Source of the DNA: an uncultured Gemmatimonadota bacterium
GTDB taxonomy: Bacteria; GCA-2686955
DNA length: 64,000 nt
Assembly (NCBI GenBank): GCA_964490075.1
Contig: CAZBBK010000029.1
Location: 383-64,382 of the forward strand
Reading direction: 5' to 3'
The notes beneath the pieces were generated by a model that had not been told where the DNA came from, did not search any database, and saw nothing but the letters and a program-made list of their open reading frames with translations. The position numbers and the translations under genes were made by a program. Below, piece by piece: positions 2,161 to 19,199 of this stretch (its first letter is position 1; each line of letters opens with the position of its first letter).

Positions 2161-3303
2161 ATGACACCGATTCCGAACATCCCCGGCGTGCTGCAGGTGG
2201 ACCAGCGCTGGTGCTCCTTGATCGAGAGCGAGCCCAGCTACCGGCTGCTCTACGTGGCCGGCGCCCCGGTCGATGCCGCGCTCGAATGGGTGCAGGCCGC
2301 CGGCGAGTACGGGGGCGGCGCCGGCACGGTCGATGACGGCGCCCTGGTGATCGTGCTGCCGGGCTCCGCGCCGGCGGAAGTCTTCGCGCAACTGGTCGCC
2401 GCGGTCGCCGAGCGGTCACCCTCCCACGGACTGGCGCGGATCGAGCTGCAAGAAGCCACCCGCTCCGCAGCGGCCTTCCAGGCGGCCTTGCACCGCGCCC
2501 GACTGGCGGCCTGGAACGGTTCGCCCAAGGTGGCCGACGATCCCTTGCGGGCCATCGACGACGCGCTCCGCGAAGGGTGGATCACCACCGTCTTCCAACC
2601 GATCGTGCGTGCCGAGGGCGGAGCATTGACCGGCTACGAGGCGTTGGTGCGAGGGTCGCGCGGCGCGCTCCGCGGAGCGCGCGAGATCTTGCAGACCGCA
2701 CTGGTGGCCGACCGGATGGCCGATCTCTCGGCGCGCATCCGGGTCTGCGCGGCACGCGGGATCGACGCCGCCGAAGGGGAGGCCCTGCTCTTCTTGAACC
2801 TGCACCCGCTCGATCTCTTCGATCCCGGCTTCGTCGAGCGCGACGCACTGCGCGGACCGTTGGCGCGGATCGCCGACCGGGTGGTGCTCGAGGTCAGCGA
2901 GCGCACCGCCATCGACAGCCTGGAAGAGGTCTGCCGGCGGATCACGCTGCTGCGCGGGCACGGCTATCGGGTCGCCGTCGACGATCTCGGCTCCGGCTAT
3001 GCCGGCCTGACCTCGCTGGTGGCGCTGGAGCCGGAGTTCATCAAGCTCGACATGGGTCTGGTGCGGCGCGTCGTGCGCTCCTCGCACACCCGCGATCTGC
3101 TCTCGGCCCTCTCTACCTTCGCCCGCAACGTCGGCACCCAGGTGGTGGCCGAGGGGGTGGAGACCAAGGCCGAGGCCCGGGCTCTGATCGAGCTCGGCTG
3201 CGACCACCTGCAAGGCCATTGGATCGGCCGCCCGGCGCCCGCCTGCGTGGCCCCTTCGACGCCGGAGCTCGGAAGCGCCGCCCGCTGGCGTCGGTCGGCC
3301 TAG
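2161..3303 (+). CDS. EAL-domain cyclic-di-GMP phosphodiesterase with a ~130-aa N-terminal domain of unknown function
   Basis: EAL signatures are present: YEALVRG, DDLGSGYAGL, EFIKLDMGL and the QGHW-type C-terminal motif. A GGAGAGG lies 11 nt upstream of the ATG at 2161. Confidence 0.8.
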   Translation: MTPIPNIPGVLQVDQRWCSLIESEPSYRLLYVAGAPVDAALEWVQAAGEYGGGAGTVDDGALVIVLPGSAPAEVFAQLVAAVAERSPSHGLARIELQEATRSAAAFQAALHRARLAAWNGSPKVADDPLRAIDDALREGWITTVFQPIVRAEGGALTGYEALVRGSRGALRGAREILQTALVADRMADLSARIRVCAARGIDAAEGEALLFLNLHPLDLFDPGFVERDALRGPLARIADRVVLEVSERTAIDSLEEVCRRITLLRGHGYRVAVDDLGSGYAGLTSLVALEPEFIKLDMGLVRRVVRSSHTRDLLSALSTFARNVGTQVVAEGVETKAEARALIELGCDHLQGHWIGRPAPACVAPSTPELGSAARWRRSA

Positions 3304-3399
3304 ACGAAGACCTCGATCCGGGTCTTGCCACCAGCCGTTCACGGGCGCACCATCGGGGTCCTCCACCTCTCGCCGATCCACCCGCCCAGGAGCTGCCCC

Positions 3400-4596
3400 A
3401 TGGCCCTCGACTTCGCCCCTTCCGAAGAGCAAGCGCTGATCCGCACCGCCGTATCGGACGCCATGCGGCGTTTCGCGCCCCGCCGCCAGGAGTTCATCGA
3501 GTCGATCCTCAAGGACCAGAAGGTACCCGCCGAGCTCTGGGACGCCTGCACCGAGCTCGGCATGCAGGGGGCGCTGATCCCGCCCGAGTACGGCGGCAAC
3601 GGCATGGGATTGACGGCGCTGACCATCGCCACCGACGAAATGGTGTCGCACGGCTACGCCAACATCTACCTGATCCTCGGCGCGATGGACTCGGCCTGCA
3701 TCCTGCGCAACGGCTCCGAGGAGCTCAAACGCAAGTATCTTCCCGACGTGGCCGCCGGCAACACCAAGCTCTGCTTCGCCCTCACCGAGCCCAACGCCGG
3801 CTCCAACACCGCCCGGGTCGAGACCACCGCCCGCCTCGAGGGTGCGGACTACGTGCTCGACGGTGAAAAGGTGTTCATCACCGGGGCCGACGAAGCGGAC
3901 TACATGATGATGGTGGCGCGCACCATGTCGGAAACCGACGCCAAGGCGCAGGGCCTGCCGCGCTTCTACGGACTGTCGGTGTTCATGGTCTCGACCAAGG
4001 CGCCCGGTCTGTCGCTGTCGCCGATCCCCACCCGCGGCATCGAGGGAGCGGGCCAGTTCTCGGTCCATTTCGATTCGGTGCGTGTTCCGGCCGACGACCT
4101 GATCGGCGAGGAGCACATGGGCGCCCAGGCCCTCTTTACCTCGCTCAATCCCGAGCGGATCCTGGCCGCGGCCTCGGCCGCCGGCATGAGCGCCTACCTG
4201 GTGCGGGCGGCCTGCGACTACGCGCGCGAGCGCAAAGTGTTTCGAGACACTCCGATCGGCGCCTACCAGGGGATCGCCCACCCGCTCGCCGAGATCCACA
4301 TCGAGGAAGAGGCGGTGCGAATGATGGCGCTCAAGGCGGCCTGGGCCTTCGACCACGACCTGCCGGCGACCGAAGTGGGGATGCTGGCGAACTCGGCGAA
4401 GTACCTGGGGGCAGAGCTGGCGATCAAGGCCGCCGACCGGGCCATCCAGACCCTGGGCGGCTACGGCTTCAGCGAGGAGTACGGGGTGATACACTTTTGG
4501 GAGAGCGCCCGCCTGCTGCGCACCGCGCCGATCTCCAAGGAGATGATCCTGAACTTCGTCGCCGAGCATCAGCTCGGGTTGCCGAAGTCGTACTGA
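3400..4596 (+). CDS. Acyl-CoA dehydrogenase
   Basis: The N, middle and C domains of an acyl-CoA dehydrogenase are all present (GMQGALIPPEYGG, CFALTEPNAGSN, and QTLGGYGFSEEYGVIHFWESARLL). An AGGAG precedes the ATG. Confidence 0.85.
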   Translation: MALDFAPSEEQALIRTAVSDAMRRFAPRRQEFIESILKDQKVPAELWDACTELGMQGALIPPEYGGNGMGLTALTIATDEMVSHGYANIYLILGAMDSACILRNGSEELKRKYLPDVAAGNTKLCFALTEPNAGSNTARVETTARLEGADYVLDGEKVFITGADEADYMMMVARTMSETDAKAQGLPRFYGLSVFMVSTKAPGLSLSPIPTRGIEGAGQFSVHFDSVRVPADDLIGEEHMGAQALFTSLNPERILAAASAAGMSAYLVRAACDYARERKVFRDTPIGAYQGIAHPLAEIHIEEEAVRMMALKAAWAFDHDLPATEVGMLANSAKYLGAELAIKAADRAIQTLGGYGFSEEYGVIHFWESARLLRTAPISKEMILNFVAEHQLGLPKSY

Positions 4597-4935
4597 GGGG
4601 CTTTCTCAGGCCACTGACCGCCTTCCTCGGTGACATTCCCTGATGCAGCCGATTCTCCTTGTTGCATGATGGGATGGATGGGGGGGGGACCGATGGTGCC
4701 GACGCCAGCGGCGCAGATCGTCCCGCGGACCGCGGCGGCGCCCGCGAAGGGTGACGCGGCCGTCCGGAGGGTCGCCGCCCGTGGCGTCTCAGCGTTGCGG
4801 CTCGGGGGAGCCACGGCTTCCTCTTCGCGCCCCCGCCACCACACGCGCACCACGAGCCGATTTCGATTCTCGAGACCGTGGTCGAGCGTCACGGATCGAT
4901 CCGACTCAGATGGACTGTGAACCGGCAGGGAACTG

Positions 4936-6143: not shown

Positions 6144-6521
6144 GACCTGGGGCTGCCCGGAGAACACACCCGGCCCGGCCGAATTCGGTTCTTTCCTCGG
6201 GTCATGTGGACTGGCGTTTCGACCATACGCTTTGCCGTCGATGCACTCCGCGCAGAAGCGCGGACCTCGCCGGAATCCGCGGGTTCTTGGGCGCGCATGA
6301 GGCGCTTCCGAGATTCTCTGTCGGCACGCATCTTCCCACGCCCATGCCCCCGCCCCCGCCCCTGCCTGGTCCGGTGGCGGGAATCGGGCATGGGCAGGGG
6401 CTCGATGGGAGGCGTGCCGGGCGCTCGCCGCGTAGAGCGCCGTTATGTCGAAGCCTCAGACGCGGAATTTCCCGCCCGCGTTTTGGCGCCCTCGCGCGAA
6501 CCTCGAGCGACCCAGGTGGGC

Positions 6522-7988
6522 TCAGGCCCCGCCCAGCTCCTCGATCGGCCCCATCACCGCGCGTTCCAGCGCGGCCAGGGCCAGGTGCACGTCGATCACC
6601 GCGTTGAGGCGGTCGCTCTCGGCGCGCCGCCGTGCATCCTCTTCTTGCAGCAGCCGTTGCGAGTCGATGCTGCCGGCCTCGAAGCGGATCAGGGCGATCT
6701 CGTAGGCTCGGGTGGCGGCGCTTTCGGCGCGTTCCAGCACCCGTGCCCGCACCCGAGCCTCCCGGTAGCGCCGGATCTGGGCGCGCAGATCGAGGGTCAC
6801 CCGGCGCCGGGCCTGCTCCTCGGCCAGGCTGCTGCGCTCCACCTCCGCCCGCGCCTCGTCGACCAGGCGCCGGCCGCGGGCACCGTCCCAGAGGGCCCAA
6901 TCGAAGCTCAGGCGCGCCGAGCGCTCGGCCTGACGGCCCTGATAAGCCGAGCGCAGGTCGTGGCCGTTGCCACGCAGCCCCGCGCCCAGCTCCAGCTCGC
7001 CGTTGATGCCCCGCGCCGAGCTCGCCCCGCGGGCCGTCAGGCGCGCACTCTCGGTGGCAAGCCGGGCGCCGCGGATCTCCTCGCGCCGCTCCAGGGCCCG
7101 CTCCAGCAACCGCTCGGGTTCCAGCTCGACCGGCGGCGGCGGGGGCACCTCGGCACGCACCGCGAGCGGCGCGCTGGCCGCTCGGCCGAGCACGTCGTTG
7201 AGCGCCTCTCGGGTCCGCGCCACGCCGCCGCGGGAGGTGATCAGAGAGGCCTCGCTCAGGTCGCGCGCCACCTCAAGCTGCAGCAAGTCGCCCTCGGCGA
7301 TCAGCCCGGCGGCGAACTTCTCCTGGGCGCGTTCGGCCTGGGTGCGGCTGGCCTCGTGGCTGCGCGCACGGATCCCCAGCAGCCCCTGGGCCCGCACCAG
7401 ACCGTAGTACGACTCGACCACCTGCACGCGCAGGTCGGCCAGCGCCGCATCGTGGTCCAGCCGCGCCTGCTCCAGGTCGAGCGCCGCCTGCCGATCGGCG
7501 TCGTCGAGCGAGCCGCTGCGATCCAGCAGCGGCACGGCCAGGCGAGCTTCCGCGATCCCGTCGACCTCGATCGGCAGGTCGGCCTGCTCTTGCGCGCGCT
7601 GGCGGTGCACCCCCGACCCCTCGAGCTCGAGCCGGGCCTGGAAGGGCAGCGGCTGGGTCAGCAGCAGAGCGCCGTCGGCCGCGGTCGATTCCTGGTCGAG
7701 CAGGTGGCGGGCGCCGGTGGTGTCGAACACGCTGAAGGCGCTCAGCCCGCTCTCGGCGCCGACGCTCAGCTCCAGCTCCGGCAGTCGCCGCTGGGCCGAC
7801 GATCGCATCCGCGCCGAACGGGCCTGGGCGATCTCGATGCGCGACTGGCGCAGGCCGAAGTTGGCCTCGAGCGCGATCGCCTGCGCCTGCTCCAGGCCGA
7901 GCGGCGCGGGTTCGGCGGCGCGGGCTTCGCGGGCCAGCGGGGCAACCAGTAACAGGGCGACGCAGCCAACGCAGCGTGGATCAGTCAT
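6522..7988 (-). CDS. TolC-family outer membrane efflux protein
   Basis: There is a signal peptide (CVALLLVAPLAREARA) and a two-repeat alpha/beta architecture with a long coiled-coil-like region typical of outer membrane factor (OMF) proteins. Its ATG overlaps the stop of the upstream permease (ATGACTGA). Confidence 0.75.
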   Translation of the reverse strand: MTDPRCVGCVALLLVAPLAREARAAEPAPLGLEQAQAIALEANFGLRQSRIEIAQARSARMRSSAQRRLPELELSVGAESGLSAFSVFDTTGARHLLDQESTAADGALLLTQPLPFQARLELEGSGVHRQRAQEQADLPIEVDGIAEARLAVPLLDRSGSLDDADRQAALDLEQARLDHDAALADLRVQVVESYYGLVRAQGLLGIRARSHEASRTQAERAQEKFAAGLIAEGDLLQLEVARDLSEASLITSRGGVARTREALNDVLGRAASAPLAVRAEVPPPPPVELEPERLLERALERREEIRGARLATESARLTARGASSARGINGELELGAGLRGNGHDLRSAYQGRQAERSARLSFDWALWDGARGRRLVDEARAEVERSSLAEEQARRRVTLDLRAQIRRYREARVRARVLERAESAATRAYEIALIRFEAGSIDSQRLLQEEDARRRAESDRLNAVIDVHLALAALERAVMGPIEELGGA

Positions 7989-9216
7989 GGCGCAGGGCCT
8001 CGATCGGATCGAGCGCGGCGGCGCGCCGCGCCGGGTAGATGCCGAACACCAGCCCCACCGCCAGGGCGACGCCGAAAGCAAGCGCCACACTGATCGGCGA
8101 CACCACCGCCGAGAAGTCGGCGAAGAGATCGATGGAGTGGGCCATCAGCACGCCGAGCACCGTTCCGGCGATCCCGCCGGCCACCGAGAGCAGCCCCGCC
8201 TCGGCCACGAACTGGGCCACCACGTCGCGGGCGGTGGCGCCCACCGCGCGCCGCACGCCGATCTCCCGCACCCGCTCCTGCACCGTCGCCAGCATGATGT
8301 TCATGATGCCGATCCCACCCACCAGGAGTGATATCCCGGCGATGGCGGCGAGCACCGCGTTGAACATCCGCTGCTCCTTCTGCTCTTCCTGCAGGAGCTG
8401 CTCGGGCAGCACCAGGGCGAAGTCCTCCACGCCATGATGGCGCCGCTCGAGCAGGCGCCGGGTGAGCAGCGCCACCGGGCGCAGCAGCCCACTCTCCGGC
8501 ACCGTGATGGTGATCTGATCCAGCTCCGGCTGCGGAAAGGCGCGCGGAGCACGGATCAACGCCGTCGGCAGCGGAATGTAGACATCGAGATCGACGTCGC
8601 GCGCCGCGAGACGATTGGCGGCCTGCGCGCGTCCCGAACGATCGCCCATCACTCCCACCACCCGATACCAGTCCGATCCCAGCTTCAGCCGCTCGCCCAC
8701 CGCCGCCTCGAAGTCGAAGAGCTTGCGCTTGATACCGTGGCCCAGCACGCACACCCGCGCGCCCCCCTCCATGTGGGAAACCCCGAGCGTCGATCCCTGC
8801 GCCGCGCGCAGCCCGAAGGCCTCGAAGTAGCCCACGTCCACTCCCACCACGGCGCCGCGTCGGGTCCGGTCGTGGCGACTCACGTCGAGCCGGCGTTCGC
8901 TCTGCGCGCTGACCACCACCCGCTCGGGAATCAGCTCCCGCAGCGCCGCCACGTCGCGCCGCGAGAGACCGCGCGAGAAGGCGGCGCGATCTTCGTCGAG
9001 CTGCGCGCTGCTGCGCTCGGGTGCGCGCACGAGGATGTTGTTGACCCCGAGCGAGGCGTACTTGCGCAGCGCCTCGTCGCGCGCCCCGGCGCCGATCGAG
9101 AGCATGGCGATCACCGCCGCCACGCCGAAGATGATCCCCATCGCGGTCAGTGAGCTGCGCATCTTGTGCGAGCGCAGCCCCTCCAGGCTGACGCGCATGA
9201 TCTCCCAGAGCGGCAT
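7981..9216 (-). CDS. ABC transporter permease of the FtsX/MacB type (no ATPase domain)
   Basis: The protein has an N-terminal TM helix, a large periplasmic domain and a C-terminal three-TM FtsX-like bundle (FNAVLAAIAGISLLVGGIGIMNIMLATVQERVREIG). Confidence 0.8.
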   Translation of the reverse strand: MPLWEIMRVSLEGLRSHKMRSSLTAMGIIFGVAAVIAMLSIGAGARDEALRKYASLGVNNILVRAPERSSAQLDEDRAAFSRGLSRRDVAALRELIPERVVVSAQSERRLDVSRHDRTRRGAVVGVDVGYFEAFGLRAAQGSTLGVSHMEGGARVCVLGHGIKRKLFDFEAAVGERLKLGSDWYRVVGVMGDRSGRAQAANRLAARDVDLDVYIPLPTALIRAPRAFPQPELDQITITVPESGLLRPVALLTRRLLERRHHGVEDFALVLPEQLLQEEQKEQRMFNAVLAAIAGISLLVGGIGIMNIMLATVQERVREIGVRRAVGATARDVVAQFVAEAGLLSVAGGIAGTVLGVLMAHSIDLFADFSAVVSPISVALAFGVALAVGLVFGIYPARRAAALDPIEALRHD

Positions 9217-9222
9217 CCGGCG

Positions 9223-10551
9223 CTACCTCCGGCGGTGCCGGCGCCGGCCGCGGCTGCTTTGGCCGGACTGCGCCGGGGATTCGGCCGACCCGGCCAGCTC
9301 CTCGAGCGTCGCGCTGTCCATATCCTGCGCCGCCCGCGGATCGATCAGCGCCAGCGCGTCGCCCTCCTCGACGCCCGAGACCACCACCGCGTGGTTCTCG
9401 CTGCGGGCGCCGAGCTCCACCGGGATTGCGTCCCAACCCGAGCCCTTGGCACGGTGCACCAGGGTCTCTTCCCCCTCCCTGAACACCGCGTCGATCGGCA
9501 AGGTCAACGTGTCCTCGAGCTCCGAGACCACGATCTCGCAGGATGCCGTCATCCCCGGCTTCAGGATCGTCGCCGTGGTGTCGATCAGCACGTTCACCTC
9601 GAACACCTTGACGTCGGACCCTTCGCTCTTGCGGCGCCCCAACGTGGCCACGTCGGAGACGGTGCCGGGAAACACCGGCCCTTCGAAGGCATCGAGCCGG
9701 ATTCGCACCTCCTGGCCGACCGCCAGCTTGGAGATGTCGACCTCGTTGACCTGGGTCTTGACGCGCACCTCGCTGAGATCGGGCAGGCCGATGATCGCCT
9801 GCCCCGGCCAGGGCGTGTCACCCACCTGGAACTTGTTGCCGGTGTTCCAGTTGCGTTCGTAGACGATGAGCCCGCCGGCGGCCGCCTTGACGTCCAGCGC
9901 GGCCCGGTCCTGGCGCGCCTTCTCGAGCTCCGCCCGGGCCTGGTCCAGCTCCAGCTCGAGCCTCCGCCGCTCCTCGGCGTCGATGATGCGTTGCGACCCG
10001 ATCTTGGCGCGGGAGCGCGCCAGGTCGTTCTCCGCCTGGGCGAAGCGCAGCTCCCCCTCGCGGCGGCGCACATCGGGCTCGAACTGCAGCTGCTCGAGCG
10101 CCAGCTTGGCCAGCTCGTGGGAGGCCTCGGTGTTGCGCAGCGCCGCCTCCAGCTCGGCGGCGGTCGCGGCCTGCGAGGCTTGCGCCCGGGTCAGGCTCGC
10201 CTTCTTGATCTCCAGCTCCGCCTCGGTATGGATCATGTGCTTCTCGAGACCGGAGGGGTCGAAGCGGGCGATCACGTCGCCCTGCTCGGCGCGCGATCCC
10301 TCGTCGGCCAGCCAGGTGATCTGCGGCCGAGATCCCCAGTCGCCGACCCGCGGTGAGGAGATGGTCATCGAGCGGGTCGCCTCCACCTCTCCCGACTCGG
10401 TGATGCTGACCACGAAGGGCCCGCGCGCGACCCGCGCGGTCGGCAGCTGGCCGCCGGCGCCGCCCCGCGAGCGCCGGATCGAGACCGCACCGGCGCCGAC
10501 CAGCGCCAGCAGCAGAATGGCGATCAGGGCCTTGGAGCGAAGGGCGTTCAC
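9223..10551 (-). CDS. HlyD/MacA-type periplasmic adaptor (membrane fusion protein)
   Basis: It has an N-terminal TM helix, a coiled-coil hairpin, and lipoyl plus beta-barrel signatures (GLIVYERNW, VRVKTQVNEVD). The start is GTG. Confidence 0.8.
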   Translation of the reverse strand: MNALRSKALIAILLLALVGAGAVSIRRSRGGAGGQLPTARVARGPFVVSITESGEVEATRSMTISSPRVGDWGSRPQITWLADEGSRAEQGDVIARFDPSGLEKHMIHTEAELEIKKASLTRAQASQAATAAELEAALRNTEASHELAKLALEQLQFEPDVRRREGELRFAQAENDLARSRAKIGSQRIIDAEERRRLELELDQARAELEKARQDRAALDVKAAAGGLIVYERNWNTGNKFQVGDTPWPGQAIIGLPDLSEVRVKTQVNEVDISKLAVGQEVRIRLDAFEGPVFPGTVSDVATLGRRKSEGSDVKVFEVNVLIDTTATILKPGMTASCEIVVSELEDTLTLPIDAVFREGEETLVHRAKGSGWDAIPVELGARSENHAVVVSGVEEGDALALIDPRAAQDMDSATLEELAGSAESPAQSGQSSRGRRRHRRR

Positions 10552-10711
10552 GTGAGTCGGATCTCTTTGGATGGGTGCGCCGGGTCGCGGGAGTCTACCC
10601 GCTTTTGCCTCTCGGTCGGATGGCGCTATCCTGAGTGTCGCGCCGGTTCCGCCCTGGCTCTTCGGAATCGCTCAGGCGCGACGCCTGCATACCGTCTCCG
10701 AAGGAGTATCC

Positions 10712-12313
10712 GTGTCCAGAACAGCCCGCATCGGCACCGTCCTGCTCGCCGCGGCTGCGCCCGCGTCTTCCGCCTCGCGCGAACAGGCCACGATCGACCG
10801 CCCCGAGGACCCGATCGAAATGGTCGGCGGCGACGTGGCGCAGCTGATCGACACCGCCGTCGACGGCTTCGCCCTCTACGTGTGGGTCGACGATCAGTTC
10901 CAGCCTCTCAACTTCCAGGTCGACGAGCGCGGACCGGGAGGGGGCTACTTCAGCGAAGAGGCCGAGACCGGCTTCATCGACGACAACGATCAGATCGTCT
11001 TCATGGTCGAGGACGGCGGGGACCGGGCGGGCACCGGCGAATGGCTCGATCATGCCAACGTCGAACCCGATCATCGTTACGAGATCGAGCTCGAGGATCC
11101 GCTGAATCCCGGCGCCAAGGGTTGGGTCTACCTCTTCCTCGGCGCCGATCTGCCGCGCTCTTCCGCCGACTACGTCGACGTGCTCGCCGACGATCCCTTC
11201 CACGTTGCTTCCGACCGCTACGGGGAGGAGTACCTGCCCGGCATTCCCGGGGCGCTCGACGATCTCACCATCCTGCCCGCGATCGGCGGCAGCGGCACCG
11301 ATCTCTACGATCGCATGAAGTTCCGCCTCAAGCTGGGACCGCTCTGGGATTGGCAGACCGAAGAAGACGGTGTCGCGGAAAACACTAACTACAAGGACGG
11401 CTCGGTGCGGGTGATCCTCGCCTACAATGTTACGATTCCGATCCTGGAGTTCGCGCTCTCCAACACCCAGGTCATCTATCACCGGCAGATGTCGATCACT
11501 CGCAACAAGATTTTCCAGCTCTATTGGCCGGAGGCCAAGCGGATGTTGTGGCTGACCGACCTGAATCCCCAGATCGACGACTTCGTCTACTACGACAACC
11601 GTGGCGGCGACAAGGAATCGCCGGCGACATTCACCGATCTGGTCGATGGGGACGGGATGCGCGACGAAGATGAGTCCTTCTCCTTCCAGGAGATCGTCAG
11701 CCCGACGCACGGCGCGTCGATCAGCGTCCAGGACAACGACCCGATTCCCGCCGACGAGACCCTTGCCTACTACTGCGACCAGTGTGGCGAGGAGGCGTGG
11801 CCCGAGACCGGCGACGGAGAGAAGTGGGGCGAGAGCGGCACCTGGCTGAAGCGTATCGAGTTCCAGAACGAGCCTTTCGAGCTGGAGTCCTGGAACTGGC
11901 GCACCGGGCCCTACGACGACGGCAGCCGCGGCCACCACTTTGCCAGCCGCTACTACCACCGCACCCAGATCACCGCCCGCTGGCAGGCGCCGACCGCGAT
12001 CGAGGACCAGGCCCCGCCGGCTCCGGCAGGCGCTGGACTGAGCCTCGCGCAAAACGTGCCCAACCCCTTCAATCCGCGGACCAAGATCTCCTTCGTCGTT
12101 CCGGAGAACGCCGGCGGGGTGCGGCTCGAGGTGTTCGACGTGGCCGGGCGCAAGGTGCGGGTGCTGGTTCGCGAGCCTCTGCCGGCCGGTGCCCACAGCG
12201 TCGTCTGGGACGGCCGGGGCGATGACGGACGCACGTTGCCCAGCGGCATCTACAGCTGTCGGATCGCCACCGCGGAGCGGTCGGCGGCGCGCCGCATGCT
12301 GCTCCTGAAGTAG
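10712..12313 (+). CDS. Secreted protein of unknown function with a C-terminal FlgD-Ig/T9SS-type sorting domain (paralogue 1)
   Basis: A signal peptide (TVLLAAAAPASSA) is present and an AGGAG lies 6 nt before the GTG at 10712. The C-terminus reads LSLAQNVPNPFNPRTKISF...GIYSCRI. The body shares motifs with the next gene: GWVYLF, DRY, PW.TEDG, and YYCDQCGEEAWPETGDGEKWGESGTW. Confidence 0.65.
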   Translation: MSRTARIGTVLLAAAAPASSASREQATIDRPEDPIEMVGGDVAQLIDTAVDGFALYVWVDDQFQPLNFQVDERGPGGGYFSEEAETGFIDDNDQIVFMVEDGGDRAGTGEWLDHANVEPDHRYEIELEDPLNPGAKGWVYLFLGADLPRSSADYVDVLADDPFHVASDRYGEEYLPGIPGALDDLTILPAIGGSGTDLYDRMKFRLKLGPLWDWQTEEDGVAENTNYKDGSVRVILAYNVTIPILEFALSNTQVIYHRQMSITRNKIFQLYWPEAKRMLWLTDLNPQIDDFVYYDNRGGDKESPATFTDLVDGDGMRDEDESFSFQEIVSPTHGASISVQDNDPIPADETLAYYCDQCGEEAWPETGDGEKWGESGTWLKRIEFQNEPFELESWNWRTGPYDDGSRGHHFASRYYHRTQITARWQAPTAIEDQAPPAPAGAGLSLAQNVPNPFNPRTKISFVVPENAGGVRLEVFDVAGRKVRVLVREPLPAGAHSVVWDGRGDDGRTLPSGIYSCRIATAERSAARRMLLLK

Positions 12314-12325
12314 GCGGTGTCGGCT

Positions 12326-13918
12326 ATGAGGCACGAACTCGAGCGGACCCTTGCGACGGCGATCGGGTGCCTGCTGGGCACGGCGGCGCCGCTGTGGGCC
12401 CTCGGGCTCGAAGAGGCGACCCTGGCGCGACCCGAGGAGCCGCTCGAGCTGCGCGGAGCCGATCTGGCGCAGCTCGACGGCCAGCCGCTGGCTCGCCTGC
12501 GGCTCTTCGCCTGGGGCGAGGGCGGGTGGCGGGCGATCCCGGTCCAGTTCGATGAACGCGGGCCGAGCGACAGCTTTTTCGAAAGCGACGATCGGCCCGA
12601 TACCCTCGATGGCAACGATTCGATCGTCTTCATGCAGGAGGATGTCGGAGGCCGAGTCGATGCCGGCACCTGGGTCGACGCCGCCGACGATCATCGCTAT
12701 CAGATCGAGGTGGTCGATCCGCGCCCGGGAGGGGGCCGGGGCTGGGTCTACCTCTTCGCGGGCGAGGCCTTGCCGCCCGCCGAGGACGACTACGTGGAGA
12801 TGGTGGCCTTCGATCCCTTCGAGATCGAGACCGATCGCTATCTGGAGCGCTTTGCCGCCGGCAATCCGGGAGTGTTGCTCGACCTGGTCATCTCCGAAGG
12901 CTTTGGCGGCAACGGTGTCGATCTCTTCGACCGGGTGAAGTACCGCGCCAAGCCGGGCTTTTTGACTCCCTGGTTGACCGAGGACGACGGCTGGGTCGAC
13001 TACGGCGACCGCGAGCCGATCGATGGACCGGTGCGGGTGCTCAACAGCTTCAAAGTGTCGCTGGCCGGATTCATCGACATGATGGACGGTACGGTCTTTT
13101 TCTACCGCCAGATGGTGGTCGTGGAGACCGTCGTGTACCAGATCATCTGGCCCGATGTGCGGCACATGGTCTGGCTGGCCGACGCCAATCCGGAGGTCGG
13201 CGACCTGATCTACTACAACAATGCCGGCGAGCAGGGGATCGCGCTGATCGACACTGTCGACGGCGACGGTTTGCGCAGCACCGATCAGCCGGCTCGATTT
13301 CACGAGTGGCGCAGTCCCAGCGCCGGCGGGGCGCTGACGATTCAGGATCCCTGGGAGATTCCGGGCGACGAGCACCTGAGCTACTACTGCGACGGTTGCG
13401 AGGAGACCCGCTGGACCGAGACCGGCGACGGCGTGCAGTGGGGTCAGTGGGGCAACTGGGTGAAGGGACTGCCCTTTGGCGCCGTGATCCCGACCGAGAT
13501 CTGGAACGTCTGGCTGCCGCCCGGCAGCGAGAGCGTGGGACAGGATTTCAGCGATCGCTTCATGGCCCGCAGTGAAGCCCTCGCCCTGTGGCAGGAACGG
13601 GAGACCACCGAAGTGCGCGAGGACGGCGAGCGACTGCCCGGCCTGCGCGTGGCGCTGCATCAGAACCACCCCAACCCCTTCAACCCAAGCACCACCTTGC
13701 GCTTCGACACGCCCGGCGGACCGCTGCGACTGGCGATCTACGATGCCCGCGGGGCGCGGGCGCGCACGCTGGTGGAGGGCGAGCCCGCTGCCGGGAGCCA
13801 TGCCGCGACCTGGGACGGCCGCGACGACGCGGGCCGGCTTCTGCCCTCGGGCCGCTACCTGGCGTGGCTGCATTGCGGCGGGCGAGTCGAGACCGCCAGC
13901 CTGGTGCTGGTGCGCTAA
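12326..13918 (+). CDS. Secreted protein of unknown function with a C-terminal FlgD-Ig/T9SS-type sorting domain (paralogue 2)
   Basis: It starts 13 nt after the paralogue-1 stop, or 4 nt after if the GTG at 12317 is used. The C-terminus reads ALHQNHPNPFNPSTTLRF...GRYLAWL. The same internal motifs recur, including YYCDGCEETRWTETGDGVQWGQWGNW. Confidence 0.65.
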   Translation: MRHELERTLATAIGCLLGTAAPLWALGLEEATLARPEEPLELRGADLAQLDGQPLARLRLFAWGEGGWRAIPVQFDERGPSDSFFESDDRPDTLDGNDSIVFMQEDVGGRVDAGTWVDAADDHRYQIEVVDPRPGGGRGWVYLFAGEALPPAEDDYVEMVAFDPFEIETDRYLERFAAGNPGVLLDLVISEGFGGNGVDLFDRVKYRAKPGFLTPWLTEDDGWVDYGDREPIDGPVRVLNSFKVSLAGFIDMMDGTVFFYRQMVVVETVVYQIIWPDVRHMVWLADANPEVGDLIYYNNAGEQGIALIDTVDGDGLRSTDQPARFHEWRSPSAGGALTIQDPWEIPGDEHLSYYCDGCEETRWTETGDGVQWGQWGNWVKGLPFGAVIPTEIWNVWLPPGSESVGQDFSDRFMARSEALALWQERETTEVREDGERLPGLRVALHQNHPNPFNPSTTLRFDTPGGPLRLAIYDARGARARTLVEGEPAAGSHAATWDGRDDAGRLLPSGRYLAWLHCGGRVETASLVLVR

Positions 13919-15831
13919 TGAGAGACGAAGTGACCGAAATGACCGATTCGAGCAAGGGATCGAAGTTGACGCTGCCGTGGAGCGAGCCGGCCAATCGGCT
14001 CAGTGTGGCCGACCTGAGCCTCTTCAGAGAGACGATCGGAGCGGAGGCCGACGGCGTCGGACCGCCCGCCGATGAGCACGGCTTTCTCGCGCTCTTCGCC
14101 CGCGCCCTGCGCGCCGGGGCGGAAGGCGAGGGGCTGGTGCGCGCGGCCCTGGACGAGCTGGCCAGCCACGGACTGTGGGAGCTTCTGGCGGAGGCGGCGG
14201 CCGCCGCCGGCGGAGGCGATGCCGAGAGTCCGCACGCCGGCGCGCTGCTGCGCGCCTGGAGCCGACTCGGGCGCGATGCCGAGCTGGCGCGGCTCGGGGG
14301 CGAGCTCGCCGCGCGCGATCCCCAGTACCTTCCCCCGCGCTATCGGCTCGACGTCGCTGCGGCGCTCTTCGAGCGCGGCGCGGATCCAGAGCTGGCGCGA
14401 AGGGTGTTGGCCAGTGCCGTGGAATACGTCGGCTCGAAGGGGAGAGAGGCGGAGATCGAGCGCCTCTTCGAGCTCCTCGCCGACCACGGCGGGGCGCCGG
14501 AGGTGCCCGCGGCGATCGAGCTCTGCGAGCGCATCGCGCGCCGCGGGCAGAGGGTGGCCGGCTACGCGGGTCTCTTCGCCATGGCCCTCGACGACGCGGG
14601 CGCGCCCGAGGCGCTCTGGCGCCTGGTCCGCGACGTGACGCTCTCCACCGGCGAGCTGGATGCCGTGGCCGCCGAGCTCGCTGGCCAGGCGATTGTCACG
14701 CTCTACGGCGCCGAGCTGGGGGCGTTGGGGCCACGCCTGGAGCGCGCCGCGCGCGGCGCCGATCCGCGCGCCGAGATCGAAGTGATCGAGCGCGCCATCG
14801 AGTGGCGCCCCGGCACCTTCGTATGCACCGAAACGGGTCTTTACTGGAGAGTCGTAGCCTGCGACGGCGTCCAAGTGACGCTCGCCAATCCGGCCGGAAT
14901 GGAGCGCCGCGAACCCCTCGATTCCCGGCTCCACGAGCGCGTGAACGCCGACTCGTGGCCGGTGCGGGTGGCCTTCTTCCGCGAGAGCCTGCGCGTGCGC
15001 GCCAGTGCCGAGCCGCTGGCGGTGGTCGAGGAGTTTCTGCGCGACCATCCGGGCAAGCTGACCGACCTCGGGCTGAAGGCCGAGCTCACCGCCCAGTTGC
15101 TCCTTCGGCCCGCGCAATGGGAGGCGTGGTTCGAAGATCTGCGCGCGGCGATCGGGCGCGGCGAGGGTGGGGTCTGCTACGCCGCCCGCAGCCGCGCCTT
15201 TACTCTGGGCAAGCCGAAGCCGGCCGCTCGCGCGACGCGCAAGAAAGCCGCCAAGAATGCGCCTCCGAAACGGCGCGTGCTGCCGATTCCGCGCCCCGAG
15301 GCGAAGGCGCGTGAGCCCGATCTCGATTCGCTCGAGCTGCGCATCGCCGCCATTCCCGAGGCGATGGCGTTGGCGCAGCGGCTGAAGGGGCGCATCAGTG
15401 CCCTGGAGCGCGAGCTGCGCATCGAGCTGCCGGAGCGGCTCAGGACCGCCGCGGCCCATGGCGATCTGAGCGAGAACGCTGAGTACGACGCAGCCAAGGA
15501 GCGCAAGGCGACCGTCGAGGGGCTCTTGACGGAGCTCGCGCCGCGCGCCCAATCGCTGGCGGCGACCGACGGGGTGCGCTGCAAGAGGGACCAGGCCGCC
15601 GTGCTGCGCTCGGTGCGGATCGTCGAGCTTCCGGAACGGACCCGCCGCGTCATTCACCTGGTGCCGAACGAGCTCGCCGATCCCGACCGGGCCTTCGTTT
15701 CGATCGGCTCCCCTCTGGGCAAGGCGCTCAACCGTCGCCGATGCGGCGAGACCGTCGAAGTGTCGCTGCCGGCCGGCAGCCGCGAGGTGACGATTCAGGC
15801 GGTCGGCGAGTTCGGTTGCGAGCCGGAGTGA
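13918..15831 (+). CDS. Large protein with a C-terminal GreA/GreB-like transcript-cleavage-factor module and a ~480-aa N-terminal region of unknown function
   Basis: The ATG overlaps the upstream stop (TAATG). The C-terminal ~160 aa contain GDLSENAEYDAAKERKA and SIGSPLGKALNRRRCGETVEVSLPAG, matching the GreA N-terminal and C-terminal domain signatures. The N-terminal region is Ala/Leu/Arg-rich and helical. A basic linker (KPKPAARATRKKAAKNAPPKRR) precedes the GreA part. Confidence 0.65.
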   Translation: MRDEVTEMTDSSKGSKLTLPWSEPANRLSVADLSLFRETIGAEADGVGPPADEHGFLALFARALRAGAEGEGLVRAALDELASHGLWELLAEAAAAAGGGDAESPHAGALLRAWSRLGRDAELARLGGELAARDPQYLPPRYRLDVAAALFERGADPELARRVLASAVEYVGSKGREAEIERLFELLADHGGAPEVPAAIELCERIARRGQRVAGYAGLFAMALDDAGAPEALWRLVRDVTLSTGELDAVAAELAGQAIVTLYGAELGALGPRLERAARGADPRAEIEVIERAIEWRPGTFVCTETGLYWRVVACDGVQVTLANPAGMERREPLDSRLHERVNADSWPVRVAFFRESLRVRASAEPLAVVEEFLRDHPGKLTDLGLKAELTAQLLLRPAQWEAWFEDLRAAIGRGEGGVCYAARSRAFTLGKPKPAARATRKKAAKNAPPKRRVLPIPRPEAKAREPDLDSLELRIAAIPEAMALAQRLKGRISALERELRIELPERLRTAAAHGDLSENAEYDAAKERKATVEGLLTELAPRAQSLAATDGVRCKRDQAAVLRSVRIVELPERTRRVIHLVPNELADPDRAFVSIGSPLGKALNRRRCGETVEVSLPAGSREVTIQAVGEFGCEPE

Positions 15832-15887: not shown

Positions 15888-16072
15888 TAAGGGTCGGCGA
15901 AGAAACAACTCCCGTGTTTGCATCCCATCTGCACCGCGTCTCCGGCCGATCGGCGAGCCCCGAAATCCTCGAAATAGCTCTGCTATTCCTCCGGTTTCGG
16001 ACCTCACCGATCGACCGGATCCACGGCACATCTGGGCGCAAACCCGGGGAGTTATTTCTTCGCCGACCCTAA
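15888..16072. repeat. 27-bp near-perfect inverted repeats (15888-15914 and 16045-16072) flanking a 130-bp, lower-GC segment
   Basis: The left arm is taagggtcggcgaagaaacaactcccg. The right arm is cggggagttatttcttcgccgaccctaa, which is the reverse complement with two mismatches. It lies in the intergenic space between convergent genes, and the right arm contains the TAG stop of the sulfatase-like gene. Confidence 0.5.
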
Positions 16073-17453
16073 CCGCCCCCGCCCAGGTACCCCAGACTCT
16101 CGAGCTGGCTGCGCGTCGCCTGGTCGATGGTCACCAGCGACTCCCGCGGCCTCGGGCACAGGGCGCTGAGTGAATCGAGCTGGCCCTCGAGCGAGGCCAG
16201 CAGCGTGGCATCGACCTCGCGGCTCAGGTCGCGGCGCTCGCCGCGGTCTGCCTCTCGGTCGTAGAGCCGGCAAGCGCCGGTCGCGCCGTCTCGAATCAGC
16301 TTCCAGCGCGGCGTGATCAACGCGCGGTCCTGATCCCCGTAGAGCAGGGCCTCGGCGATGGTCGGTGCCATGGGGGGGCGCGGCCCGAGATCATCCCCTC
16401 CACCAGGCTGATCCCCCGGGCCCCGGGCAAGGGCGGCGCGTCCAGCAGCTCCAGCAGAGTCGGAGCCAGGTCGAGGATCCGGGCGCCGCCGGGGATCGTG
16501 CCATCGTCGCGCGCCGCTCGCGCCCGGCGCAGCTCGGTCATCTGGGCGCCGCCGCCGTGGGAGGGCGGCACCAGGATGCCCGGAACCCAGAGCAGCTCTC
16601 GATGCAGCGTGTGACCGTGCTCGGTGGCACCGTGATCCCAGTGCTCCTCGCCGTGATCGGAGACCACCAGGATCATCGTCTGGCGCGCCTCCCCGGTCGA
16701 GCGCAATGCCCGCATCAGCTCCGCCAGCCAGGCGTCCGCGAAGCGGATATCGGTCGCGTAGAGATGGCGGATATGGGCCCGCAGCGGCTGCGGCAGATCG
16801 GGCGAGGTGAGCAGCTGGCGGCGTACGATCGGCGGCGCGAAGGAGGTCGGCGGGGGCGGCTCGGGCGTCGGGGGCGGCAGATCGGCGTGCGCCAGGTAGG
16901 GAAGATGGGGCTCCATCAGGTGCAGATAGAAGAAGAAGGGGCGGTCCCCGTGCGCCAGGGAGCGCAGCATCTCGAGCGCGCGCGCGCGCAGCTCGCCGCG
17001 CCGCTCCTCGGCGATGAACTCGTAGGACTCGAAGCCCCGATCGAAGCGGGTCCAGGTTTTCAGGTGCGGATTGCTCTGCAGCGCCGCGACGGCATAGCCC
17101 GCGTCGGCGAGGGCCTGGGGCAGGGTGCCGACCTCTTCGGGCAGCGCCTGCATCACTCCGTTGTGCCCGCCGTGGTCGATCCCGAGCTCGGTGGGGTAGC
17201 GCGAGCTGAAGAGCGATCCTACCGCCGGGCGGGTCCATGGCGACTGGCTGATCAGATCCTCGAAGCGCAGTCCGCAGCGGGCCAGCGAATCGAGGGTCGG
17301 AGCGACGCCGGGATCGCCCCCGTAGCTGCCGAGCACATCCGGACGCAGCGTATCGACCAGGATCAAGAGCAGGTTGGGCCTCGGGTCGGGAGCCACGTCC
17401 CGGACCTGGCAGCCCAGCAACAGAGTAAGTGAAATTAGTGACAGTCGTCGCAC
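16069..17453 (-). CDS. Sulfatase-like hydrolase lipoprotein (alkaline-phosphatase superfamily), interrupted by one frameshift near 16380
   Basis: It starts with GTG. There is a lipobox (LLLGCQ). LILVDTLRPD and VVSDHGEE are metal-site motifs. The C-terminal part (PRWKLIRD...RLYDREADRGERRDLS) is in another frame (ORF 16069..17238). The frames switch at catggggggg. Confidence 0.55.
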
Positions 17454-17549
17454 CCTTTAGAGCCTATAGGGTCCGCGGTCGCTCCATCCTCTTTTTCCGC
17501 CCTTGCCCCCTTGTGCCGCGCCCTCGGATCGGCTATTCCAGACAGTGCG

Positions 17550-17569
17550 GGTGCGAATAGATGCGCACC
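17550..17569. promoter_or_regulatory. Perfect hexamer inverted repeat GGTGCG-N8-CGCACC, 85 bp upstream of the sigma-54 activator start
   Basis: The sequence is ggtgcgaatagatgcgcacc. A short AT-containing spacer inside a 70% GC context is suggestive of a dimeric regulator operator. Confidence 0.2.
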
Positions 17570-17654
17570 GGCAGCGTTTCCGCAACAATTGGCGCCCCGC
17601 GGTCGAGCGAGTGTACGGCAAGGCTCGCACGAAGGTGGGGTGAAGGGAGGTGAC

Positions 17655-19199
17655 ATGCCCAAAGCGGATCGCCGAATGGAGAGGCAAGAGAGGTTCGTTG
17701 AGTCGTTGACCTCGAAATTCGGGAGGAGACTGGGGGCTTCCCCAGAGAGCCGGCGAGACGAGCTGCTCACCCAGGCGGTGCTCTTCGCCCTGCAGGAAAG
17801 CGGCCTGGACTGGGATCTGGCGCCACGCGCGGCGGCGATCGAGACGGTGACCGGCACCTTGACCGTGCAGACATCGAATCTGAACGCCCCGGTACGTTCC
17901 GAGGTCAGCCGCACGGTGATCAACACGGTGATGCAGACCTGCGAGCCGATCCTGATCACGGAGTCGCCCCAGAGCGACGATTTCCTGAGCTCGACCAGCG
18001 TCACTCAGCTCGGCCTGCAGTCGATTCTCTGCGTGCCGGTCCCACACCCGACGCGGCGCAACCGCGCGATCGCGGTGATCTACTACGACAGTCGCGAGCC
18101 GGGCACCTTCGGGGTCGAGGATCTGGCGTTCCTGGAAGATGTCGTCGACCTCTGCGCGCCGGCATTTCTGGCGCTCGATGCACCCTATCCGGCGCTGCCG
18201 CCCGAGCTGATCCGACACAGCAAGCCCTTCAGTCGCGTGGTGCGCGCCCTGCGGAGGCAGCACAACGCCGGGCGCTCGGTGCTGATCGGCGGCGAGTCCG
18301 GAACCGGCAAGAGCCTGTTGGCCAACTGGCTGCGGGAGCACGGCCCGCGCAGCCAGATCCGCAGCGTGCGCATCGACTGCAGCCGCGGCGAAGAGGTGAG
18401 CGTGAGGCTCTTCGGCCGCGTCCAGGCCGGCATGGGAACCACCACCCGTCGTCGCAGCGCCATCGATGTCGCGCACCGGGGAGCGCTGATCCTGGAGCAG
18501 GTCGACGCTCTCACGCCGGACCTGCAAGCGCGGCTCCTGGCGCGGCTCGAGAGCGAAGAGAACGACGTGGTCATCATCGCCACCGAATCGCGCTCGATCC
18601 CCCGGATGATCGAGGATGGCCGATTCAGCCGCGGTCTTTTCGCGGCCCTCGGGGGGCGCCTCTACGTCGTGCCTCCGCTGCGCAACCGCCCGGAGGATCT
18701 GGAGGCGATCGCCCGCAGCATGATCGAGAGGGCGGGATTCGAGCTCGATCCGGCGCTCTTGGAGGCGCTGGCGGCGCGCTCCTGGCCGGGCAACGTTCGC
18801 CAGCTCGTCGAGACCCTGGAGCAGATGCTGTGGAAGGTCGTGGCGCGCGATCAGCTGGAGCTCAAGGCCGATGCCCTGCCGGCCTCCGCGGCCGAGATCG
18901 AGACCCAGGGCCAGACCACCGAGCCCGTGACCGGCGGCGTCGAGGAGGTCGCCCTGCGACAGCTGCGCGCCACCCTCGACGATCTGCCGATTCTGCCCTT
19001 CCGCCAGGTGGCTTCGGTGGTCTACGCCGCCGCGCTGCAGCGCCATGACGGCAACGTCTCCGCCGCCGCCAGGGCGCTGCGACTCAACCGCAACACCTTC
19101 TACTCGAGGATCGAGAAGGCCGGATTGGAGATCGATCGGACCCGCGACAACACCAACCATCGTGGTGACGAGGTGGCGGTGGAAGCGGAAGAGGAGTAG
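17655..19199 (+). CDS. Sigma-54-dependent transcriptional activator (GAF sensor, AAA+ and Fis-type HTH domains)
   Basis: The AAA+ domain has Walker A (GESGTGKS) and WPGNVRQL motifs. The C-terminal HTH reads GNVSAAARALRLNRNTFYSRI. The N-terminal region is GAF-like. A GGGAGGTG lies 3 nt before the ATG. Confidence 0.8.
   Translation: MPKADRRMERQERFVESLTSKFGRRLGASPESRRDELLTQAVLFALQESGLDWDLAPRAAAIETVTGTLTVQTSNLNAPVRSEVSRTVINTVMQTCEPILITESPQSDDFLSSTSVTQLGLQSILCVPVPHPTRRNRAIAVIYYDSREPGTFGVEDLAFLEDVVDLCAPAFLALDAPYPALPPELIRHSKPFSRVVRALRRQHNAGRSVLIGGESGTGKSLLANWLREHGPRSQIRSVRIDCSRGEEVSVRLFGRVQAGMGTTTRRRSAIDVAHRGALILEQVDALTPDLQARLLARLESEENDVVIIATESRSIPRMIEDGRFSRGLFAALGGRLYVVPPLRNRPEDLEAIARSMIERAGFELDPALLEALAARSWPGNVRQLVETLEQMLWKVVARDQLELKADALPASAAEIETQGQTTEPVTGGVEEVALRQLRATLDDLPILPFRQVASVVYAAALQRHDGNVSAAARALRLNRNTFYSRIEKAGLEIDRTRDNTNHRGDEVAVEAEEE

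Follow-up and report, generated by a model that had tools for sequence, protein, structure and literature searches.

A predicted long-form GreA that joins a divergent Gre module to a rare N-terminal module also found alone

The long GreA gene

The DNA analysed here, which we call the window, is a 64-kb stretch of contig CAZBBK010000029.1 (assembly GCA_964490075.1) from an uncultured Gemmatimonadota bacterium. On its forward strand, to which window positions refer unless the minus strand is named, lies a gene at 13939-15831 whose product, referred to here as the long GreA, is predicted to carry a complete GreA module at its C terminus behind a 426-residue N-terminal module (N-module). Positions 13918-15831 form one open reading frame (ORF) without an in-frame stop, and its translation gives 637 residues and a stop codon, or 638 codons. 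A preliminary description of this DNA had reported a 638-aa protein; the ORF is real, but that length counts the stop codon and the likely product is shorter still. The GC content at third codon positions (GC3) was 0.84-0.93 in each 300-nt slice of the ORF, the same as in the two genes upstream, and because it is uniformly high the whole length looks coding. The stop codon of the upstream gene (TAA, 13916-13918) shares one base with an ATG at 13918-13920, forming TAATG. This overlap had been taken as the start of the gene and is present in the DNA, but the ATG at 13918 is probably a gene-caller choice that is not used. The Met encoded by the ATG at 13939 (residue 8 of the 637-aa form) was the common start of all six aligned homologues. 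L001 is the closest homologous locus, and its gene begins at the same DNA as the window gene, ATGACCGATTCG, 45 nt past the upstream stop. Since the homologues start at this Met and L001 shares the start DNA, the product is probably a 630-aa protein that begins at ATG 13939, 20 nt after the upstream stop. Residue numbers are counted from this Met, and Pfam match coordinates are those stated before the start was corrected. A 580-aa antisense ORF opposite the GreA gene (13915-15657, minus strand), a 1092-aa ORF at 10595-13873 and other long antisense or other-frame ORFs between 9 and 20 kb are high-GC shadows, as GC3 favours only the forward-strand frame.

The Gre module

The last ~165 residues of the long GreA are, by homology, a complete GreA module with an intact acidic tip. 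Both Gre domains of Pfam were found above their gathering scores and in the correct order, with GreA_GreB_N at residues 487-541 (46.8 bits, cut-off 24.5; E = 3.6e-12) and the C-terminal GreA_GreB domain at residues 558-629 (48.1 bits, cut-off 26.9; E = 1.2e-12). When the last 165 aa were compared with Escherichia coli GreA by BLASTP, they matched residues 1-155 of its 158 colinearly, at 25% identity and with a single gap of one residue (E = 4e-16). The globular domain of E. coli GreA docks on RNA polymerase, and the Asp and Glu at the tip of its coiled coil (D41 and E44) are needed for cleavage stimulation. In the alignment, HGDLSENAEY of the long GreA lies over HGDLKENAEY of E. coli, so that the catalytic tip residues are kept as D509 (nt 15463-15465) and E512 (nt 15472-15474). 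The tip D-x-x-E-N-A-E-Y was conserved in five of five fused proteins.

The Gre coiled coil occupies residues 466-543 (15334-15567), on the basis of the GreA_GreB_N match and of an AlphaFold2 model that was run on a seven-sequence alignment (mean predicted local distance difference test score (pLDDT) 83.5; predicted template modelling score (pTM) 0.56). This model has a pair of long helices, at residues 473-505 and 514-542, connected by a loop that contains HGDLSENA, and a beta-rich domain at residues 545-624. The latter lies within the C-terminal globular domain (residues 544-630, 15568-15828), which is marked by the GreA_GreB match and an S-x-x-S-P motif, VSIGSPLGKAL aligning with ISVNSPIARGL of E. 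coli. A Foldseek search of the Protein Data Bank (PDB) with the full model matched structures of GreA, GreB and Gfh1 at E values from 8e-8 to 3e-4. The module makes up 26% of the 630-aa protein, at its C-terminal end. The preliminary description had placed a complete GreA/GreB-like module in the last quarter of the protein and had proposed aligning it to GreA and checking whether the acidic tip (DxxE) is retained. The two Pfam domains and the colinear alignment bear out the former, the tip is indeed retained, and the three strings quoted there, GDLSENAEYDAAKE, KPKPAARATRKKAAKNAPPKRR and SIGSPLGKALNRRRCGETVEV, were all found in the protein.

The fusion of the N-terminal region to the Gre module is real. 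Assemblies from JGI, ENA, NCBI and Logan all held contigs with the identical protein, and four other protein clusters (634-641 aa, 39-59% identity) from independent assemblies had the same fused architecture and the same start. Conservation at the protein level, at 41-57% identity, extended across the whole N-terminal region. An in-frame ATG, codon 483 of the 637-aa form at 15364, lies roughly where a slightly short GreA could begin. The homologues have K, K, D or L in place of its Met, and the sole GAGG ahead of it is 2 nt away, a spacing unusable for a Shine-Dalgarno sequence. As far as the sequence can tell, the unconserved Met, the five clusters and the four data sources rule out both an internal start and a merger of two genes. 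The earlier view of a large, genuinely fused N-terminal region therefore holds, and a downstream start that gives a GreA of normal length fails.

The N-terminal module

The N-module (426 residues) is a self-contained unit that also occurs alone. We searched 1.84 billion representative proteins with the first 480 residues by phmmer (E ≤ 0.001), a homologue search that had been suggested as a check, and obtained five matches, three to fused proteins and two to stand-alone proteins, P0006 (435 aa) and P0007 (437 aa). The stand-alone proteins were 27% identical to the N-module (E = 7e-11 and 1e-8) over residues ~50-430, ending where the linker begins; because they exist alone and end at this point, the N-module is an independent unit. 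Scanning one genome for each of 185,579 species with a four-sequence alignment, we found the fused gene in two species representatives, both metagenome-assembled genomes (MAGs) labelled Gemmatimonadota. The first 480 residues had no match in Pfam-A (in a library without PF27167), and the N-terminal region had no direct match in NCBIfam, PDB sequences or PADLOC. The stand-alone N-module genes lie within 2687-4673 of locus L007 and 7366-9308 of L015/L016, on contigs of 66% and 50% GC. A divergent PilZ-domain gene adjoins in both, and NUDIX and family-2 glycosyltransferase genes are nearby.

The AlphaFold2 model suggests that the N-terminal region has three parts and a linker. Residues 1-288 (13939-14802) form a predicted acidic alpha-helical repeat with a net charge of -16 (-9 to -28 in homologues), in which residues 23-288 are modelled as 15 helices at a pLDDT of about 90. 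Foldseek gave weak TPR/PPR-type matches for this part in the PDB (E = 0.05-0.1), so that we describe the repeat as TPR-like. It is followed by a small five-stranded beta-barrel of SH3/Tudor/KOW-like type (residues 289-338, 14803-14952), seen as five short strands at residues 294-335 in the full model and supported by a sub-model of residues 286-430 with a pLDDT of 92.4. The barrel superposed at 1.8-2.5 Å on generic small barrels, among them the UvrD C-terminal domain, the Spt5 KOW domain and SH3 domains (E > 0.01); the RapA N-terminal domain was also among the matches (51 columns, root-mean-square deviation 1.9-2.4 Å, E above 0.01). These superpositions mark a fold class, not a function. Residues 339-426 (14953-15216) form a predicted winged helix, with helices at 340-406 and a hairpin at 412-423, which is presumably the part that corresponds to HTH_GRAD (PF27167); its W397 and R417 are invariant in fused and stand-alone homologues. 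The region had previously been described as helical; it is not purely so, as a barrel and a winged helix follow the helical repeat. The basic linker reported ahead of the Gre module was recovered at residues 427-465 (15217-15333), where the stand-alone homologues end. It is rich in K, R, P and A and predicted to be disordered (pLDDT below 50 at residues 430-460), and its net charge is +8 here and +3 to +8 across all five fused proteins, with no conservation of its sequence.

GreA factors had been described as normally stand-alone and the fusion as unusual. The N-module is rare, but long GreA fusions are already catalogued in NCBIfam and Pfam. NCBIfam holds NF004969 (PRK06330), a 'transcript cleavage factor/unknown domain fusion protein' of 718 positions, and NF011309 (PRK14720), a GreA model of 906 positions; we take the two to represent the GreAs of Chlamydia and of Borrelia/spirochaetes. 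For the window protein, precomputed Pfam annotation lists HTH_GRAD (PF27167), GreA_N and GreA_C, with PF27167 marked 'weak'. The same three domains are listed for relatives, with PF27167 unmarked for P0002, and PF27167 is the sole domain of P0007. Against NF004969 and NF011309, the whole protein scored 24.7 bits (cut-off 697) and 34.8 bits (cut-off 714), and the Gre part alone was matched.

A profile search with the N-module alignment found P0008, a protein of 728 aa; an NCBI entry named 'GreA/GreB family elongation factor' belongs to its cluster. By hhalign, the N-module profile matched P0008 with 97.3% probability (E = 2e-11) over 230 columns, aligning residues 179-413 with P0008 residues 23-260; the aligned stretch takes in residues 179-288 of the helical repeat and the winged helix, up to residue 260 of P0008. 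The N-terminal part of P0008, with its Gre module removed, in turn matched NF004969 at positions 7-460 (E = 7e-23) and NF011309 at positions 214-480 (E = 5e-29). P0008 and the stand-alone N-module genes lie in neighbourhoods unrelated to that of the long GreA gene. The idea that P0006 and P0008 come from one genome, raised by a shared assembly and similar coverage, was rejected on their GC contents (50% and 70%). By these comparisons, the N-module is a distant relative of the 'unknown domain' at the N terminus of catalogued GreA fusions of 720-900 aa, and the window protein is a rearranged, divergent relative of catalogued long GreAs that falls in neither curated equivalog.

Genomic context

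The two genes directly upstream of the long GreA gene (10712-12313 and 12317-13918) encode paralogues of 533 aa that are probably secreted, each with an FlgD_ig domain (Pfam) at its C terminus. They are 40% identical to each other (E = 3e-130) and have signal-peptide-like N termini. FlgD_ig was their only family match, with none for the first ~450 residues; a type IX secretion system sorting-tail model scored 20.2 bits against a cut-off of 23. One or two FlgD_ig paralogues of ~530 aa precede the long GreA gene in the window and in loci L001, L009, L011 and L013. The long GreA gene is separated from the gene before it by 20 nt in the window and 45 nt in L001, and by 175 and 155 nt in L011 and L013, respectively; the two FlgD_ig genes of the window are 3 nt apart. 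Judged from the 3-nt and 20-nt gaps alone, the long GreA gene may be co-transcribed with the FlgD_ig genes. Co-expression with secreted proteins, as proposed in the preliminary description, is plausible in the window, whether with the 20-nt gap or with the overlap, but the gaps are 155-175 nt in two of four other lineages and the overlapping start is probably unused.

A regulator with GAF, sigma-54 activator and HTH_8 domains is encoded 1-3 kb downstream of the long GreA gene, at 17511-19199 in the window, 12861-14372 in L001 and 13675-15150 in L011. We found 18 sigma-54 -24/-12 motifs in the window, against 18.6 expected, and none in the relevant intergenic gaps; a sigma-54 promoter that ties the operon to the neighbouring activator was rejected because the motifs are not above chance. 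A scan for sigma-70 promoters found none, and the sole plausible terminator lies at 16031-16048, 200 nt downstream of the gene. Between the long GreA gene and the activator, on the minus strand, is a sulfatase-family gene (16317-17453), also present in L013; the slot is variable, being empty of a sulfatase in L001 and holding a BNR/sortilin-like gene in L011. On the other side, an efflux operon of OEP/MacB-FtsX/HlyD type (about 6500-10551, minus strand) is divergent from the FlgD_ig genes, as it is in L004, L011 and L013. Neither the window nor any of the other loci analysed held a second Gre gene, and no tRNA, tmRNA or Rfam family (at gathering thresholds) was found in the window.

Discussion

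We think it rather probable that the window protein is a long-form GreA built of two modules that also occur apart, in which a Gre cleavage factor is tethered to an N-module that provides a second contact. Its architecture and homology are well supported, and the role of the N-module is put forward as a hypothesis. By analogy with GreA, the Gre module would enter RNA polymerase's secondary channel and stimulate cleavage of backtracked RNA. The N-module would make the second contact, be it to RNA polymerase, to nucleic acid or to a partner protein, and this contact could raise the occupancy of the factor or steer it to particular complexes. The basic linker may add non-specific contacts with nucleic acid.

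Several points weigh against this reading. By its scores, which fall below the NCBIfam GreA equivalog cut-offs (98.2 bits against 145 for NF001263 and 88.3 bits against 139 for TIGR01462), the Gre module is a divergent GreA, and that it is active in cleavage is an assumption. Its connection with known long GreAs runs through one intermediate, P0008, and a precomputed Pfam match marked 'weak', and the N-terminal region alone had no match to NF004969 or NF011309 at E ≤ 1. The model of the barrel and winged helix had no significant match when searched against the PDB with Foldseek (best E = 0.03). A by-eye resemblance of 'KVGDYFYHP' and 'EWSRWW' in P0008 to 'KVGDTVVYP' and 'NWSRRY' in CarD had suggested that the barrel and helices are related to CarD/TRCF-RID (PF02559). 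This likeness was rejected, as hhalign gave a probability of 0.08% (E = 0.61) and BLASTP E = 0.72; the region had no Pfam match at E ≤ 10, and CarD was absent from the top 50 Foldseek matches. The sensor or anchor role suggested in the preliminary description is a reasonable guess. The N-module may serve to anchor or recruit the factor, with contact to polymerase or nucleic acid as our proposal, and its acidic helical repeat would suit anchoring, the binding of proteins and autoinhibition equally well.

We weighed several other explanations of the gene and its product. It is extremely unlikely that the long ORF is an artefact of annotation or assembly, in which a GreA of normal length starts internally or two genes were merged by a frameshift error. 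The in-frame ATG at 15364 is what speaks for it, against which stand the lack of conservation and the poor ribosome-binding context of that codon, the recurrence of the fused frame across five clusters and four independent sources of assemblies, and the high GC3 and protein identity that run through the entire N-terminal region. A second possibility concerns the activity of the Gre module, which might not cleave and might instead be a competing or inhibitory secondary-channel factor like Gfh1, Rnk or DksA, with the N-module giving specificity. Its scores under the GreA equivalog cut-offs and the Gfh1 structures among its matches are consistent with this idea, and inhibitory Gre homologues such as Gfh1 also have acidic tips. 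However, GreA was matched much more strongly than Gfh1 in a PDB search (45.7 against 18.5 bits) and than the Rnk model NF004548 (98 against 22 bits), every fused protein has the D-x-x-E-N-A-E-Y tip of cleavage-active GreA unchanged, and the coiled coil, whose shortened form is the mark of Rnk, is full length in the AlphaFold2 model. The stronger GreA matches and the full-length coiled coil argue against membership in the Gfh1 or Rnk groups, and we regard a non-cleaving module as improbable.

Other alternatives concern what the N-module does and with which genes it works. The N-module may be sensory or autoinhibitory, its acidic repeat folding back on the basic linker or the Gre module and releasing it only on a signal such as a ligand, a partner protein or a modification. 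The charges would suit such an interaction, as in each of the five fused proteins the helical repeat is acidic (net -16 to -28) and the linker basic (+3 to +8). Peptides or proteins are the typical ligands of TPR-like repeats, and the weak Foldseek matches give the helical repeat such a character; the existence of the N-module alone also points to a function independent of Gre. On the other side, no ligand-binding family was found in the N-module (Pfam, NCBIfam and PADLOC), the pTM of 0.56 gives no confident packing between domains, and no result separates the sensor reading from the anchor reading; on balance we judge a sensor unlikely. It is possible, if somewhat doubtful, that the N-module is an autonomous unit that binds RNA polymerase or nucleic acid and works alone too, and that its fusion yields a cleavage factor attached at two points. 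Finally, the gene might be coupled to the upstream surface proteins as a dedicated elongation factor for their operon, perhaps together with the GAF/sigma-54 activator. The window, L001 and L011 share the order FlgD_ig, long GreA, GAF/sigma-54 activator, the first two of which also follow each other in L009 and L013, and the gaps in the window are very short. All of these loci come from one narrow lineage (two species representatives, both Gemmatimonadota MAGs), however, and the shared order may therefore be simple inheritance. The wide gaps in L011 and L013, the lack of sigma-54 motifs above chance and the unrelated contexts of the stand-alone N-module proteins and P0008 also speak against such coupling, which we consider very improbable.

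If the N-module is indeed an autonomous unit that binds polymerase or nucleic acid, attachment at two points could let the factor out-compete other secondary-channel factors or reach particular transcription complexes. The 630-aa protein, which lacks the ~300-residue centre of P0008, would then be a more compact model for the N-terminal region of Chlamydia and spirochaete GreAs. Gre factors belong to the best-understood transcription factors of bacteria, yet our full-text literature searches turned up no study of the N-terminal region of long GreAs and none of 'HTH_GRAD'. The compact layout and the natural stand-alone copies define the boundaries of the N-module and show its independence, so that its function becomes easier to address. 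The finding alone leaves existing knowledge unchanged: Pfam and NCBIfam already hold the architecture, and this is a tiny family, known only from uncultured marine MAGs labelled Gemmatimonadota. What is useful here is the compact arrangement and the stand-alone copies of the N-module; the class of long GreA fusions was already known. We take this class to include the GreAs of Chlamydia and Borrelia. As the one experimental hint found, GreA is listed among the proteins co-purified with Borrelia RNA polymerase, in a paper that does not state that it is the long form (PMC7237435).

The protein can be set beside four known systems or groups. HelD (PDB 6wvk and 6zca), a helicase-like protein that was among the Foldseek matches (E = 0.01-0.02), is alike in concept, with a Gre-like coiled coil as a probe of the secondary channel mounted on a large body that makes other polymerase contacts. 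Unlike in the window protein, the Gre-like part of HelD is N-terminal, its partner is an ATPase and its function is polymerase recycling; we found no ATPase or helicase domain in the window protein in Pfam or NCBIfam. With canonical GreA (E. coli, PDB 1grj; PF03449 and PF01272), the Gre module shares its fold, colinearity over residues 1-155 of 158, the D41/E44 equivalents, NAEY and the S-P motif. It differs in its low identity (25%), its equivalog score below the cut-off and its place as only 26% of a 630-aa protein. The stand-alone HTH_GRAD proteins P0006 and P0007 have the domain order and end point of the N-module, whereas they have neither linker nor Gre module, no Gre gene nearby, and PilZ, NUDIX and glycosyltransferase genes as conserved neighbours.

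The long GreA fusions, represented by P0008, likewise have a complete C-terminal Gre module behind a large N-terminal region. The two Gre modules are 30% identical over 107 residues. P0008 has ~300 helical residues between its winged helix and its Gre module, where the window protein instead has a basic disordered linker of ~40 residues, and the window protein carries ~178 additional helical residues at its N terminus. Common to both is a core of a helical segment, a small beta-barrel and an HTH_GRAD winged helix.

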